Notes under the pieces: model-generated | Databases searched by the model: none | The model's input: the letters and a program-made list of their open reading frames with translations, nothing else | What the model was told of the DNA's origin: nothing | Shown here: positions 1 through 7,194 of the stretch, in pieces | Position numbering within the stretch: the stretch's first letter is position 1 | Layout: each line of letters opens with the position of its first letter | IMG/VR virus record: IMGVR_UViG_3300045988_083077 | Length of the DNA stretch: 33,365 nt | From: a virus | Reading direction: 5' to 3' (one strand) | Made by a program: the position numbers and the translations under genes

Positions 1-55
1 TTTTTATAGTGGTGCGCCATGAGGGGCTCGAACCCCCAACCTACTGATTCGTAGT
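1..55. repeat. attL core direct repeat; bases 10..55 are a displaced 3-prime tRNA fragment on the minus strand, not an intact tRNA
   Basis: Exact 55/55 match to 33311..33365. The reverse complement of 10..55 reads anticodon loop, T arm, acceptor strand and CCA. Identity to a tRNA fold is lost at base 56, where the anticodon stem should continue. Confidence 0.9.
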
Positions 56-107
56 ATTTAAATAAATGGCTATTTATAAAGGTTTTTAGCGATTTAAACG
101 CATAGGG

Positions 108-1145
108 TCACACATCTGCAAGAATACGAGCTGCTTTTTCTAAATCGCTCATGTCGATGTGAGTGTAAATATTGGCAGTCATTCGTATGTCTGTATGGCC
201 CATCAGCTTTTGAGCTGTCCTGATATCAATCCCCTTTTTTGCAAGATTGGTGCAATATGTATGTCGCAGACAATACTGAACAATATCGCTTGCGAGTGGA
301 TAAGGAGGTATGGGTTTGTTCCGATAGACCTCGCATCCCATTGCAATGTTAATCTTATTCTTAAAAACTTCCCATGTTATTTGTCGGTAATTAACCTTAA
401 CCATCTTGTTTGTTCTAGTGTGGCATATATAATCATCAGCCTTTGTATCCTTGAATAAATCGTATAGCCATTGAGGAAGAGGAACGACACGATCGGCACT
501 TGCCGTTTTAGTCCCGCGAACATGTAGATAGTAGAATCTATCACGGACAATGATATCATTACCTTTGCAGTTATATGCCTCGCTTGGCCGACATCCACAA
601 TATAACATCATTAAGTACGCATAAAACTTGGTATCAGTCAAAGCGACTTTAGTAAAGTACTGCTGCTCTTCTTCCGTCAATGCTCTGCGCTTGAGTTTAA
701 AACCTGCAGGCTTTTCCAGGAACTCGGCAGGGTTGCTATTGATTAAGCCTTCCTGCACAGCTTTACCAAATATAAAGTTCATTGCTTGGTGAACCTTTGC
801 AATCTGTGATGATGACCTCCCGCGCTGACTATTGAGTACTTGCTGACAATGGAGTGGCTTGATAGATTTAAGCGAATACGATCCGATGATAGGGTCAATA
901 TTTGATTGGACGAGGTAAACAAAATTACGCTTAGTACGGTCAGAGCATTTTGTTTTATATGTTTCAATGCAGGTTTTAGACCAGGAAGTAAAGGACATAG
1001 ACGACTCTATGTACACATGACCCTTTTCCAATTCAAGTTTCCTGCGCTCCGCCTTTTGATACAACTCACGCTCGGTATCCGCGTATATTTGATAACGCTT
1101 TCCATCGAATGTAAACGAAGTCCTGAATTTATACTTCTTAGGCAT
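108..1145 (-). CDS. int: Phage tyrosine integrase (site-specific recombinase)
   Basis: 345-aa ORF. The C-terminal catalytic region LRHTYCTNLAKKGIDIRTAQKLMGHTDIRMTANIYTH shows H-x-x-R, H and Y. An upstream Arg box is present (CGCRPSEA). The gene lies directly beside the att repeat. Confidence 0.95.
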   Translation of the reverse strand: MPKKYKFRTSFTFDGKRYQIYADTERELYQKAERRKLELEKGHVYIESSMSFTSWSKTCIETYKTKCSDRTKRNFVYLVQSNIDPIIGSYSLKSIKPLHCQQVLNSQRGRSSSQIAKVHQAMNFIFGKAVQEGLINSNPAEFLEKPAGFKLKRRALTEEEQQYFTKVALTDTKFYAYLMMLYCGCRPSEAYNCKGNDIIVRDRFYYLHVRGTKTASADRVVPLPQWLYDLFKDTKADDYICHTRTNKMVKVNYRQITWEVFKNKINIAMGCEVYRNKPIPPYPLASDIVQYCLRHTYCTNLAKKGIDIRTAQKLMGHTDIRMTANIYTHIDMSDLEKAARILADV

Positions 1146-1244
1146 GATACACCTTTACTTTCTATAATATATTTTTGAGCAAAATCTTAATTAAAGAATT
1201 TTATAATTAATACTTTGAGCAAATTTTTAATTAAAAAATATTGA

Positions 1245-1267
1245 CCTGTTTCCATTTTGGAAACAGG
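1245..1267 (-). terminator. Hairpin terminator between the nuclease-like gene and the integrase gene
   Basis: Perfect 9-bp stem cctgtttcc / ggaaacagg with a 5-nt loop. On the minus strand an A/T-rich stretch with a T run follows a few bases later. Confidence 0.6.
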
Positions 1268-1291
1268 TGTGTCGTGAATGTGTTGTTATAA

Positions 1292-2041
1292 TTATGTAAC
1301 TTTCTTTTTAATAGCTTTTGATATTTTGCGTCTATACTCGGATGACTTTTCATCTTCTAGAGCATCTCGTTTGAGGACATCAGATACTAGCATCTGATAT
1401 ATCTCTTCGTTGGTCACCTTTGTATCAGCGGACACCTTTTTAAAGGTTCTTTTTATATAATTAATAACATCATCGGAAAGAATTATTTGAGCCAACATTG
1501 GAGGATTAACTAGTTTCTTTTGCACATGGTATTCGGTGAGCGAATTTCCATTTTTGCCGAGGGCTTCTTTAGAGAGCATGTATAGATAGCGAAGATGTTC
1601 GTTGTCAGTAGCTTTCAAATCATGAATATTGAACTCATATACAAGTTCATTATCTACAGGTTTACTAAAGATTATCCGATACACCTTCCATGTTTCTCCA
1701 TTAGTTAGCACAACCCAATCAATGCCAGCATTTGAACCATAATCGGTGGCCTGCTTAAGGTGATTATATTTTAAGTTAGTACCTATTGATTTGACCTCTA
1801 TTAGGAGTTTTACTTCTTCATTTAATCTTATTGCTAAATCACAAAAAGTCTTTTTTATAGCAAATTCAGATGTTATATCGTCATATTTGTCGTAACCAAA
1901 AATATCTGAAAGCATATCAACGATAATTGTGACAGTGTCACTTTCGTTCAGATCTTGCTTCTCTGCTTTAGTCAAAATGGGTTTGTACTTTTTTAACCCA
2001 TCTGCAAATCTTGATTTTACTTTAACTGGAACTGTTGCCAT
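1292..2041 (-). CDS. Stand-alone PD-(D/E)xK nuclease-fold protein resembling the type I restriction enzyme HsdR N-terminal domain (HSDR_N-like)
   Basis: 249-aa ORF. NESDTVTIIVDML...CDLAI...LLIEVKS...WVVLTNG matches the HSDR_N pattern, with D68 and E82-x-K84 as the nuclease-type core. It starts 3 nt after the repressor stop, so it is probably co-transcribed. Local G+C is low. Confidence 0.6.
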   Translation of the reverse strand: MATVPVKVKSRFADGLKKYKPILTKAEKQDLNESDTVTIIVDMLSDIFGYDKYDDITSEFAIKKTFCDLAIRLNEEVKLLIEVKSIGTNLKYNHLKQATDYGSNAGIDWVVLTNGETWKVYRIIFSKPVDNELVYEFNIHDLKATDNEHLRYLYMLSKEALGKNGNSLTEYHVQKKLVNPPMLAQIILSDDVINYIKRTFKKVSADTKVTNEEIYQMLVSDVLKRDALEDEKSSEYRRKISKAIKKKVT

Positions 2042-2043
2042 AA

Positions 2044-2490
2044 CTACCTCCTACTCAATATAAATTCCGTATATCGCAAAACATCGGCTATTTGTTCATC
2101 ACTCATAGATCTAAGATTATCCATGATGGCAAAGAATGAATCTTTATTTTGAGAAACACCTGCAGAGGAAGTAGACGAATCGTCGCAGTGGTCACAGGTG
2201 TTTGTTTTATGATTATTGTTATATAAATATTTGTTGTATGAACCACTGTCATTTAATAAAAATCCATCATTAATTAAATTCTGTTTAATATCCCATCCCA
2301 TTAAGTGGCTTGGTGTTGTTTTTAGGGCCTCTGCAAATTTTATGATTCGTGATTGTGTCATATCAACCATGCCGTTTTCAATCTTTGAAATCATTGTTTT
2401 ATCAGAATATCCGAGTTTAGCTGCGAGCTCGCTTTGTGTCAGTCCAAGTTGTAAGCGTCTATCCTTTATATTTTTATAAAGATCTAACAT
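2044..2490 (-). CDS. XRE-family HTH lysogeny repressor (cI-like), with no obvious S24 peptidase domain
   Basis: 148-aa ORF. The N-terminal RLQLGLTQSELAAKLGYSDKTMISKIENG is a classic XRE HTH. The gene is transcribed divergently from the early operon. Confidence 0.85.
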   Translation of the reverse strand: MLDLYKNIKDRRLQLGLTQSELAAKLGYSDKTMISKIENGMVDMTQSRIIKFAEALKTTPSHLMGWDIKQNLINDGFLLNDSGSYNKYLYNNNHKTNTCDHCDDSSTSSAGVSQNKDSFFAIMDNLRSMSDEQIADVLRYTEFILSRR

Positions 2491-2515: not shown

Positions 2516-2544
2516 ATTATAATGGCTATTTATAAATAATTCAA
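2516..2544 (-). promoter_or_regulatory. Sigma-70-type promoter for the repressor operon
   Basis: The minus strand reads TTGAAT (2544..2539), a 17-nt spacer, then TATAAT (2521..2516), upstream of the repressor start at 2490. Confidence 0.65.
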
Positions 2545-2561
2545 CAAAATTGCATAAATAG

Positions 2562-2590
2562 TTGACACAACAAGCAACGAATGTTATAGT
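2562..2590 (+). promoter_or_regulatory. Sigma-70-type early (lytic) promoter
   Basis: TTGACA (2562..2567), a 17-nt spacer, then TATAGT (2585..2590), upstream of the Cro-like gene at 2623. Confidence 0.7.
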
Positions 2591-2605
2591 TGAATTAAAT
2601 TCAAC
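2589..2605. promoter_or_regulatory. Palindromic operator GTTGAATT-a-AATTCAAC overlapping the -10 of the early promoter
   Basis: Perfect 8-bp inverted arms around one central base. Related elements: right half-site AATTCAAC at 2538..2545, left half-site TTGAATTA at 2503..2510, and a 15/17 copy at 2829..2845. Confidence 0.65.
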
Positions 2606-5199: not shown

Positions 5200-5643
5200 A
5201 TGATAAAGAACAGCAAACTCTATGTCTACATTGAGTACGAGGAAACTGCAAAAGGAATCATAGTTCGAAATCATCACGATGGAGTTTCGATGCTAATAAG
5301 TAAGAAGAACACAGATCAAGAAATAAGGCAGTTCAAACAAGAAATCATAGATGACATAGTCGAACTTATGTCAAATGTCCACATTAAAGAATGCAAGGTA
5401 TGTCACAAAAAATACTACACACAGTATATGCAGCAACGCAACTGCTCAAAGAAATGTAGCGAAGAGGCACAAAGAGAAAGCGTACGCAGATGCTATCAGG
5501 CAACAAAAGAAAAGGAAAACATCGGAACGGCCTCAAACAATGAGAATCTCGACAGAGAAATAGCGGCCGCAGACGCAGAAGGCATTTCGTACGGAAAGCG
5601 AAAGGCACGCGAATTTGCGAAGACAGTAAGGGTAGAAATATGA
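5200..5643 (+). CDS. Hypothetical protein with a zinc-ribbon-like motif
   Basis: ATG at 5200 lies 7 nt after AGGAGG; the track start at 5197 is TTG. CKVCHKK...CSKKC is present. Confidence 0.65.
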   Translation: MIKNSKLYVYIEYEETAKGIIVRNHHDGVSMLISKKNTDQEIRQFKQEIIDDIVELMSNVHIKECKVCHKKYYTQYMQQRNCSKKCSEEAQRESVRRCYQATKEKENIGTASNNENLDREIAAADAEGISYGKRKAREFAKTVRVEI

Positions 5644-7194
5644 AATTCATTGATTTTTTTAGCGGTGTGGGGGGGTTCACGCATGGGATGGAACTTGCAG
5701 GACACGAGTGTATTGGTCACTGTGAGTTTGACAAGTATGCAGAAGCAAGCTATCGCTCAATGCACACTATCACAGAGGGTCAACGAGAATACTTGCTTAC
5801 CTTACCGCTCAGACAAAGACAGAAGGAGATTTTAAAGGATGAGTATCTTAATGGAGAATGGTACGCAAATGATGTTCGAAGAGTTATCGCAGACGACATA
5901 CCACGAGCAGAATGTTGGTGTTTTGGATTTCCCTGCCAGGACATTAGCATCGCAGGACACCAACACGGATTTAAAGGAAATCGCTCAAGCCTATTTTTTA
6001 GAATTACAAACCTTATTGAACAGCTCAAAGAGGAAGATAGACCCGACACCCTTTTCATTGAAAATGTTAAGAATCTACTTTCTGTTAATCGAGGACTCGA
6101 CTTCGCAAGACTTCTCGTTGAGTTGGACAAAATTGGGTACGATGCGGAGTGGGAAGTTATCAACTCGAAACACCATGGCGTCCCACAAAACCGCGAAAGA
6201 GTGTTTATTGTTGGACATCTTAGAGGAGCAGGTAGACGGGAAGTATTTCCTATCGAGAAAGCAGGCGGAGAAAATTGTATTAAGCAAATAGGTCTTATAG
6301 GGGGGGGTGAAACGAGATAATCCCAATCGTTACAGAGTTTACGATCGTGAGGGAATTGCTCCCTGCCTAACAAAATGTGGAGGTGGAGGCCTAGAGGCAT
6401 ATATAACACAACCATTTGGGGTTGTAAAGACAAGCAGCAAGCTGCAAGAACTCGAAATTGCAAACTGCTTGACAGCGAATGAGGATCGAGGGGTGTCAAA
6501 GCAAGGCCCATCAGGAACTGCAGTTGCTATACCACTAGCATTTTCAGAGCAGTTTGGTATAGACAAGTCATCAAAGGCACCTCAGAAAATAGACATAGCA
6601 AATTGTCTGCTTGCAAGGGAAGACAGCGGAGTAAAAACACACTCTGCAGAGGGAACAGCAATAGCAATTCCAGTCCTAACGCCTGAGCGAGAAAACAAGC
6701 GACAGAATGGACGAAGAATGAAAGAAGATGGCGAACCCTCTTTTACACTAACAGCACAAGACAGACATGGCGTTGCAATATCCGTGCAACCAAATGATAA
6801 AAGTGGGGTGGATGAAATCAAAATAAAGGAAGCTACAAAAAAAGGATATGCTCTTGCAGACAAGGGAGATAGCGTCAACCTCGCAGTACCAAATAGCACA
6901 ACAAGACGAGGAAGAGTAGGCGACAAAGTCGCGCAGACACTAGATACATCTTGCAATCAAGGAGTTGTAGTAGAGCTATACGATGACTGCAGTGTGTGGG
7001 CAACATGGAGCGAAAAATATAACTGCTATCTTGCAATAAGAAAACTAACACCACGCGAGTGCTTTAGATTGCAAGGTTGGGAGGACGAATATTTTGAAAG
7101 GGCAGAACAGCTAAACTCAAACAATCAACTATACAAGCAGGCAGGTAACGGAGTGACAGTTAATGTAATAAAACACATAGCAGAGAGGATGTAA
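5640..7194 (+). pseudogene. DNA (cytosine-5)-methyltransferase split into two ORFs (5640..6320 and 6307..7194) by a +1 frame offset at a G8 tract; either phase-OFF or a pseudogene
   Basis: The first ORF carries motif I FSGVGGF, motif IV GFPCQDIS, motif VI ENVKNL and motif VIII QNRERVFIVG. The second carries RKLTPRECFRLQGW and the motif X-like QAGNGVTVNV. Removing one G from 6300..6307 gives a continuous frame reading ...QIGLIGGVKRDNPNRYRVYDREGIAPCLT... Confidence 0.9.
6300..6307 (+). repeat. G8 homopolymer at the junction of the two C5-methyltransferase ORFs
   Basis: Counted directly: g at 6300 plus ggggggg at 6301..6307, followed by t. Confidence 0.95.

Follow-up and report, generated by a model that had tools for sequence, protein, structure and literature searches.

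A PD-(D/E)xK nuclease-fold gene directly behind the repressor of a temperate oral phage: a putative lysogen-expressed defence cassette

We have analysed a viral sequence of 33,365 nucleotides (IMG/VR record IMGVR_UViG_3300045988_083077; this whole stretch is called the window below), which appears to represent a nearly complete temperate phage genome of ~33.4 kb from a human oral bacterium. Our subject is a gene for a protein of 249 amino acids (aa) at the left end of the window, where three leftward genes, namely the integrase gene int, the 249-aa open reading frame (ORF) and the gene for an XRE-type repressor, lie opposite a divergent cro-like gene (Table 1). This order had already been noted in an earlier reading made from the sequence alone (hereafter, the sequence-only reading), and the ORF map agrees with it in both succession and strand. 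In that reading the 249-aa protein was assigned to the HsdR N-terminal nuclease fold and was considered to be either a defence or superinfection-exclusion nuclease, or an induction sensor or antirepressor occupying the slot usually held by ImmA.

The 249-aa protein carries an HsdR_N-type PD-(D/E)xK profile, a D...E-x-K motif followed by QxxxY and a restriction-endonuclease-like α/β fold, and the assignment to the HsdR N-terminal fold was borne out by profile and structure searches alike. PF13588 (HSDR_N_2) matches residues 41-123 above its cut-off (33.3 bits vs 25), PF04313 (HSDR_N) falls just under its own (24.7 vs 25.1), and the match to MmeI_N is weak; HSDR_N and HSDR_N_2 have been grouped with EcoR124I inside the PD-(D/E)xK superfamily (Steczkiewicz et al. 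2012, PMC3424549). The full length of the protein is covered by phrog_17239 (E 1.7e-90), which is listed as of 'unknown function' in PHROGs. No family for the protein was found in NCBIfam, nor did the PDB, searched by sequence with the protein itself or with a profile of 35 sequences, yield anything meaningful. As the sequence-only reading had stated, there is no HExxH protease motif in the translation, nor is there a match to Peptidase_M78.

Residues D68, E82, K84, Q97 and Y101 are invariant across 150 relatives. The invariance of NESDT and of G106-N114 in this set is partly built in by the search patterns, and the active site was therefore rechecked on an unbiased set of 105 representatives found without motif patterns: D68, E82 and K84, the three residues that had been singled out as catalytic, are kept in 102-103 of them, and the complete set of five in 100-103. 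QxxxY is a hallmark of RecB-family nucleases, and the D-14-ExK-13-QxxxY spacing of the 249-aa protein is what we take to be the layout of the RecB/HsdR nuclease group.

The AlphaFold2 (AF2) model, built from a 35-sequence alignment, has a mean predicted local distance difference test score (pLDDT) of 88.3 and a predicted template-modelling score (pTM) of 0.72. It consists of an N-terminal helix pair, an α/β core with strands at 69-73, 76-83, 109-113, 117-124 and 130-138, and a set of C-terminal helices (147-244, pLDDT mostly 73-95); the motif blocks of the core have pLDDT values of 85-97, except for residues 61-70 at 66. Foldseek matches in the PDB are to PD-(D/E)xK proteins only and are weak (E 6e-3 to 0.2), the first being the Type IIL enzyme DrdV (7lo5; E 5.7e-3, prob 0.98); Cas4 and an HsdR fragment (3h1t) come lower in the list. 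In BFVD a single match is strong (E 2.8e-8), namely that to a protein labelled 'HsdR N-terminal domain' from an uncultured phage. The C-terminal part had been described from the sequence as a K/E-rich helical tail of about 100 aa; it is indeed helical, and in the AF2 model it is a folded, conserved domain rather than a mere tail. It belongs to no Pfam family and has only a weak match to phrog_11628. Folded alone (window 1295-1624), it reached a pLDDT of 52 and was not used for a fold search. Some longer relatives are fused to TerD at the N-terminus or to DUF4268, RAMA or DUF5655 at the C-terminus (P0121, P0137, P0184, P0213 and P0254).

The nuclease gene is closely joined to the repressor gene. 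On the minus strand the junction reads ...AGT AGG AGG TAG (repressor stop, 2046-2044), TT and then ATG at 2041, with the Shine-Dalgarno (SD) sequence of the nuclease gene lying inside the last codons of the repressor gene. Stop and start codon are thus separated by 2 nt, the third base past the stop being the first of the ATG; the sequence-only reading had given the start as 3 nt after the stop. The ttaggaggtagttATG of this SD site recurs in two related phages (L098 and L104; L numbers denote the loci of relatives). No terminator-like site was found between the two genes, and a putative intrinsic terminator follows the second of them, its hairpin (1268..1244) starting 24 nt past the TAA stop. 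Because of the 2-nt gap, the SD inside the repressor gene, the lack of a terminator between the genes and the strong one after them, co-transcription of the nuclease gene with the repressor is probable, as had been supposed; int, beyond the terminator, is probably a separate transcription unit.

The divergent region between the repressor and the cro-like gene measures 132 nt and carries two promoter-like sites, one for each direction; such sites are no more numerous in this region than expected from shuffled sequence. The -10 of the site for the cro-like gene and the palindrome GTTGAATT-T-AATTCAAC overlap. All three copies of GTTGAATT in the window fall in 2538-2605, their total not being above chance and their clustering alone being notable, and these sites are likely operators of the XRE repressor. 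The repressor itself matches HTH_3 only in Pfam, in agreement with the earlier statement that it lacks an S24 autocleavage domain. The G+C content is 34.0% in the nuclease gene, 34.0% in the XRE gene, 34.8% in the cro-like gene, 41.0% in int and 41.1% in the window, and the AT-rich block is the whole immunity region (1146-2826), not the nuclease gene alone. The sample at 1801..1860 that had been hand-counted at 23% is correct (23.3% G+C); the view that the nuclease gene is uniquely the most AT-rich part is not, as the XRE gene equals it.

Table 1 Features of the repressor-nuclease-integrase region, in window coordinates
Feature	Coordinates	Strand	Basis
Tyrosine integrase gene int, 345 aa	108..1145	-	PF00589 (Phage_integrase), E 4.4e-18
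Putative intrinsic terminator: 11-bp stem (5 G-C pairs), 3-nt loop, T-run	1234..1268	-	Consensus match
Putative mobile cassette ('moron'): SD, ORF and terminator, no promoter of its own detected	1244..2053	-	blastn breakpoints
Nuclease gene, 249-aa HsdR_N-type PD-(D/E)xK	1292..2041	-	ORF, PF13588, phrog_17239, dN/dS
All-helical C-terminal domain (aa 141-249), K224 and R225 nearly invariant	1295..1621	-	AF2, conservation
Nuclease core (aa 30-140): NESDT (32-36), D68, E82-x-K84, Q97xxxY101	1622..1954	-	Invariant columns, AF2
XRE/HTH_3 repressor gene, 148 aa, without S24 or M78 domain	2044..2490	-	Pfam
AGGAGG SD of the nuclease gene, within the last codons of the repressor gene	2047..2052	-	5 nt upstream of the ATG, read directly
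Promoter-like site of the repressor-nuclease operon: TTGAAT, 17 nt, TATAAT	2516..2544	-	Consensus, 10/12
Promoter-like site of the cro-like gene: TTGACA, 17 nt, TATAGT, extended TG	2562..2590	+	Consensus, 11/12
Candidate operator, palindrome GTTGAATT-T-AATTCAAC	2589..2605	.	Further half-site at 2538-2545
Divergent cro-like helix-turn-helix gene, 67 aa	2623..2826	+	phrog_4583, E 6.9e-6

Alignments with related phages (blastn) define the limits of the cassette. In L103 the identity to the window (100%) is confined to 2053..1244, that is to the SD, the ORF and the terminator hairpin. L098 and L101 share 99.85% identity over window positions 2053..10, the immunity region 2054-2861 being replaced, and L105 shares 90.7% over 2053..1282 and has a different integrase thereafter. 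The cassette is 100% identical in phages that have otherwise diverged, with early regions 85% identical. The identical 249-aa protein stands behind the 148-aa XRE repressor in L099 and L100 and behind a 182-aa helix-turn-helix (HTH) protein in L098 and L101-L103; a 92% copy stands behind a 213-aa HTH+S24 LexA-like repressor in L104, and 80% copies stand behind HTH+S24 LexA-like repressors of 213-223 aa. Identical or near-identical nuclease genes therefore have three types of repressor ahead and different neighbours on the other side, from which, together with the breakpoints, it follows that the cassette is discrete and independent of any given repressor. In each of the 10 places shown, from 22 contigs read, the next gene after that of the exact 148-aa XRE protein is the nuclease gene.

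Traces of earlier exchanges were also observed in the repressor genes. The 148-aa and 182-aa repressors have unrelated HTH parts and a common C-terminal tail of 50 aa at 70% identity (window 2044-2193, aa 99-148; L098:7782-7934). The spacer ahead of the SD in L098 holds remains of an S24 repressor gene, a 3' end that no longer codes there but is still coding in L104, and we conclude that the 2-nt junction in the window arose recently, when the 3' end of XRE was fused to the SD of the cassette. The tail and the relic together record serial replacement of immunity genes ahead of a fixed cassette. We considered the shared tail as a means by which the repressor might guide the nuclease and rejected this as unlikely: the S24 repressors have no such tail, most homologues have no repressor, and the phage's own operators would be targets.

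The ratio of non-synonymous to synonymous substitution rates (dN/dS) of the nuclease gene against sibling copies is 0.05-0.08, indicating strong purifying selection. A TAC-to-TAA change at nuclease codon 19 (window ~1985-1987) was seen in two metagenome contigs, L187 (3450-3576) and L196 (914-1040), which are independent of each other and come from the same type of phage. Given the low dN/dS and these stops in otherwise similar phages, the gene is functional yet dispensable.

The family is moderately large. We have found 1665 matches in the 90%-clustered database; of the representative clusters in the 50%-clustered library, 2118 match at E<=1e-3 and 176 at E<=1e-30. Relatives occur in 487 of 185,579 species genomes (one genome per species), a count limited by the search pattern. 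The carriers belong to more than 12 phyla and include Bacillota, Bacteroidota, Planctomycetota, Verrucomicrobiota, Cyanobacteria, Chloroflexota, Acidobacteriota, Leptospira, lineages of the candidate phyla radiation (CPR) and a Methanoperedens archaeon. This patchy yet highly conserved distribution points to horizontal transfer.

Among viruses, 127 IMG/VR contigs carry a relative, of which 74 were analysed. An HTH or HTH+S24 regulator lies at position -1 or -2 on the same strand in at least 30 of the 74, often 3-30 nt away, and an integrase follows within four genes (<=4) in at least 19; the cases linked to a repressor or integrase range from 94% to 38% identity. The ORF caller and the seed hidden Markov models (HMMs) used were crude, and the neighbourhood counts, viral as well as cellular (seed HMMs), are lower bounds. 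In the Thermus phage Riverbug a LexA-like regulator is followed after a 4-nt gap by the homologue (35.6% identical over its full length), then by one gene and an integrase. Oral phages show the order S24 repressor, nuclease homologue, variable cargo and int. The cargo between the nuclease gene and int (L002-L009, 6750-8900; L018:2450-2845) includes a 252-aa PemK_toxin-like protein, SLFN_AlbA_2+HATPase_c_4, Abi_2 and Bro-N/PDC-S13-like genes, and the repressor-to-int stretch in these Clostridia-type phages appears to be a hotspot of accessory-gene cargo.

For cellular genomes, context was counted in the best 75 cellular loci, with 66 upstream and 62 downstream immediate neighbours. The gene immediately upstream encodes HTH_3 in 6/66 cases (five with S24) and Peptidase_M78 in 4/66, the rest being mostly unrelated genes. 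Immediately downstream, a tyrosine integrase was found in 6/62 and a serine recombinase in two, the others being heterogeneous; a recombinase lies within a few genes downstream in ~15 of the 75 loci (seed HMMs), nearly all of them from Bacillota. Homologues thus occur with tyrosine recombinases, with serine recombinases or with no recombinase at all. In four genomes (L019, L023, L064 and L080) the order is HTH gene, ImmA-like Peptidase_M78 gene, nuclease homologue and recombinase gene; as the homologue directly follows the M78 gene there, the nuclease co-exists with ImmA and does not replace it.

A further observation concerns six of the 75 cellular homologues, from four phyla, which are tightly paired with an Ion_trans/Ion_trans_2 channel gene of 232-265 aa. 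Both genes of a pair share one strand and lie -23 to +40 nt apart, the channel gene being upstream in L021, L027 and L055 and downstream in L037, L054 and L094. These pairs may be a two-gene, Rex-like variant.

Of the two roles proposed in the sequence-only reading, that of a nuclease for defence or superinfection exclusion fits best, and a single-gene nuclease of this kind, expressed in the lysogen, is the best reading that we can offer, one that commands about half of our confidence. The nuclease gene has what is expected of a moron, being a discrete, exchangeable cassette in a conserved backbone and occupying a slot directly downstream of the repressor that recurs in unrelated phages. As an accessory cassette without its own promoter it would borrow that of the repressor, and its translation would be coupled to the repressor ORF, the protein hence being made in the lysogen; the 2-nt gap, the SD and the placement of the terminator are the grounds for this expectation. 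The cassette's own terminator would insulate int. The product, a stand-alone RecB/HsdR-type PD-(D/E)xK domain joined to a conserved helical domain, would be a DNA nuclease that needs Mg2+ and no partner protein; by attacking foreign DNA on entry it would protect the lysogen together with the prophage. Self-sparing would depend on a universal property of invader DNA, either free linear ends or replication or recombination intermediates, and not on sequence-specific restriction. We infer this type of discrimination because the family works alone in >12 phyla, without a methylase or ATPase, and because its QxxxY motif is of the RecB type. Accessory genes that lie behind a repressor and are expressed in the lysogen are an arrangement of a known kind; this protein family in that role is undescribed.

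Several points weigh against this reading. It requires that the nuclease spare both the host chromosome and the resident phage, and the promoter and terminator assignments on which the predicted expression partly depends are consensus matches only. The 249-aa protein had zero matches at E<=1 among the 5027 models of PADLOC-DB v2, and our searches returned no literature on the family, including no experiment on any member. Relatives from different phyla, and one from an archaeon, retain 45-55% identity to the query, which is unusually high for a defence nuclease. Moreover, about 80% of the cellular homologues are solitary, with no repressor or integrase nearby and with heterogeneous, housekeeping-looking surroundings; one relative with 53% identity, for instance, sits between CN_hydrolase and GATase genes. 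Defence-like genes account for ~7 of the 128 immediate neighbours in cellular genomes (~5%; PADLOC), and the classic defence-island signal outside phages is weak, too weak to serve as support. The pairing of homologues with repressors, which the sequence-only reading had put forward for checking, is recurrent among the viral relatives and fails for most cellular ones. Likewise, scattered homologues with no prophage association, which it had named as telling against its proposal, describe some 80% of the cellular relatives and not the viral ones.

A role in DNA metabolism, with the protein serving the prophage as a nuclease of repair, recombination or excision, or being a housekeeping nuclease acquired by phages, is in our judgement unlikely. 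RecB-family chemistry, the high conservation, the many solitary homologues in housekeeping-like contexts and the position beside int are all consistent with it, whereas the terminator that separates the gene from int, the variable type or absence of a recombinase near homologues and the dispensability of the gene speak against it, and the small, pattern-limited number of species genomes with a relative does not suit a housekeeping function. Distinctly unlikely, to our mind, is a foreign-DNA sensor built on the nuclease fold with pluggable outputs, acting alone behind repressors and as a Rex-like pair with an Ion_trans channel, a possibility suggested by the tight pairing of the six homologues from four phyla.

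A discrete cassette with sharp edges, which is 100% identical in phages with early regions of 85% identity, is patchily distributed across phyla and exists in nonsense alleles, could also be a selfish, free-standing homing-type endonuclease that cuts nuclease-free repressor-int junctions and is copied in by repair with no benefit to the lysogen. We consider this quite improbable. No empty-site alleles were found, the exact XRE gene being followed by the nuclease gene everywhere shown, and the heterogeneous cellular contexts offer no one conserved target; very strong purifying selection and cross-phylum conservation are atypical of homing nucleases; and the identical block in L098 takes in int as well, which ordinary modular recombination fits.

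The other role suggested at the outset was that of an induction sensor or antirepressor, in which a nuclease-fold protein replaces ImmA or S24 and inactivates the XRE repressor, for example on sensing DNA damage. The slot between repressor and int does resemble that of immA, the repressor has no S24 domain, and no M78 or S24 ORF was found anywhere in the window (seed HMMs). The repressor swaps described above argue strongly to the contrary: the identical protein is found beside two unrelated repressors, its 80-92% copies accompany self-cleaving HTH+S24 repressors, and the cassette edge at 2053 leaves the repressor outside. ImmA-like M78 genes stand alongside the homologue in the four genomes named above, most homologues have no repressor nearby, and nonsense alleles occur in otherwise similar phages. 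We therefore regard this role, including that of an ImmA stand-in, as very improbable.

It is just as hard to credit a type II toxin with XRE as antitoxin, or the restriction half of a restriction-modification pair protected by the phage C5-methyltransferase (5640..7194): XRE does match HipB, HigA and MqsA-type antitoxin models weakly (below cut-offs) and a DNA_methylase gene lies 3.6 kb away, but XRE, like a true immunity repressor, is accompanied by candidate operators and a divergent cro-like gene, the nuclease occurs without XRE or methylase in most loci, the two-gene co-occurrence is not conserved (HTH_3 directly upstream in only 6/66), and the methylase belongs to the rightward lytic operon and is frameshifted, with the nuclease intact, both in the window and in L099, the integrated prophage, on which last ground a split restriction-modification system was rejected.

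Comparison with known systems places the protein closest to the HsdR N-terminal domain (EcoR124I, 2w00; Vibrio vulnificus, 3h1t) and to MmeI/DrdV (7lo5), which it resembles through the PF13588/PF04313 families and the weak MmeI_N match. HsdR and DrdV, both near the top of the weak Foldseek list, share with it the motif order D, E-x-K ~14 residues on, and QxxxY. Unlike these enzymes, it is a stand-alone protein of 249 aa with no match to an SF2 translocase/ATPase and with no methyltransferase or specificity subunits, and it has a helical C-terminal domain of its own and an extra invariant NESDT helix. The genes hsdM and hsdS are absent from its neighbourhood in the window and are not recurrent among the 128 cellular neighbours. 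As it lacks translocase domains and adjacent hsdM/hsdS genes, we exclude the 249-aa protein as a Type I HsdR subunit.

With ImmR/ImmA, an XRE repressor and a Peptidase_M78 antirepressor, the locus shares gene order and strand between repressor and int. Unlike ImmA, the protein has no HExxH or M78 domain, stands alongside ImmA in four loci and is also found behind S24 repressors; an identity as ImmA/IrrE is excluded by the missing protease motif and by the lack of an obligate pairing with XRE, ~80% of the cellular loci having no regulator. The RexAB system of phage lambda consists of exclusion genes expressed in the lysogen and co-transcribed with cI. Expression from the repressor operon in the lysogen would be common to both, and the six homologues paired with Ion_trans genes echo the logic of a sensor plus a channel; unlike the two-component Rex system, the window has no channel gene, and no sequence similarity was found. 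Shedu (SduA, DUF4263) and other single-gene PD-(D/E)xK defence nucleases likewise consist of one protein without a methylase, and an end-sensing model has been proposed for Shedu. There is, by contrast, no match to the PADLOC Shedu model even at E<=1, and the domain family and the accessory domain differ.

There is a likeness in layout to BstA of the Salmonella prophage BTP1, which lies directly downstream of the repressor, presumably under a shared promoter, has its own terminator and occurs behind diverse repressors (PMC8585504). The likeness, a single accessory gene directly behind a prophage repressor with its own terminator and with diverse repressors ahead, is one of layout only: the two proteins are unrelated, having no detected family in common, and PADLOC gives no match; BstA is a DNA-binding abortive-infection protein with the self-immunity element aba. 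The gene ltp, too, is part of a lysogeny module, and the prophage transcribes it (PMC3952083). Ltp/Sie of dairy phages resemble the present case in that a gene, there one for superinfection exclusion, sits inside that module; they are membrane proteins or lipoproteins that block DNA injection, unlike the window product, which is predicted to be a cytoplasmic nuclease-fold protein.

As for the phage itself, L098, L100 and L101 (33,418-33,427 nt) are other, circularly permuted assemblies in which int stands beside the lysis module, whereas in L099, a contig of 90.8 kb, the phage is integrated beside the Peptidase_M20, isochorismatase, sigma54 activator and FBPase_2 genes of a human oral bacterium, with host genes directly beyond int. 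None of 50,697 GenBank phage records matched 25 kb of the window by megablast. The C5 DNA-methyltransferase gene (5640..7194, + strand) is split into ORFs of 226 and 295 aa at a G8 run (6300-6307) in the window and is split also in L099 and L100; it is a single 532-aa ORF in the siblings L098 and L102. Poly-G phase variation or a recurrent assembly error could account for this. A gene with a SocA_Panacea domain lies near the phage attachment site attP between int and the lysis module in some siblings (L098:10607-11059, L187:6071-6447), and in L100, a phage of the window type, its place is taken by a 64-aa HTH gene and a 152-aa gene; the int-to-lysis stretch is a second variable accessory region.

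The carriers of the gene, which measures 750 bp, include temperate phages of the human oral and gut microbiota, a Thermus phage and bacteria of >12 phyla. If its function in defence or superinfection exclusion is true, these elements would share an uncatalogued single-gene family of anti-phage nucleases, absent from PADLOC v2. If, instead, the nuclease fold serves as a sensor of foreign DNA, the family would represent a new and very widespread single-gene immunity module that responds to a universal feature of invader DNA, e.g. free ends. For the temperate phages, the finding means that a gene in the 'ImmA slot' need not be part of the lysogeny switch.

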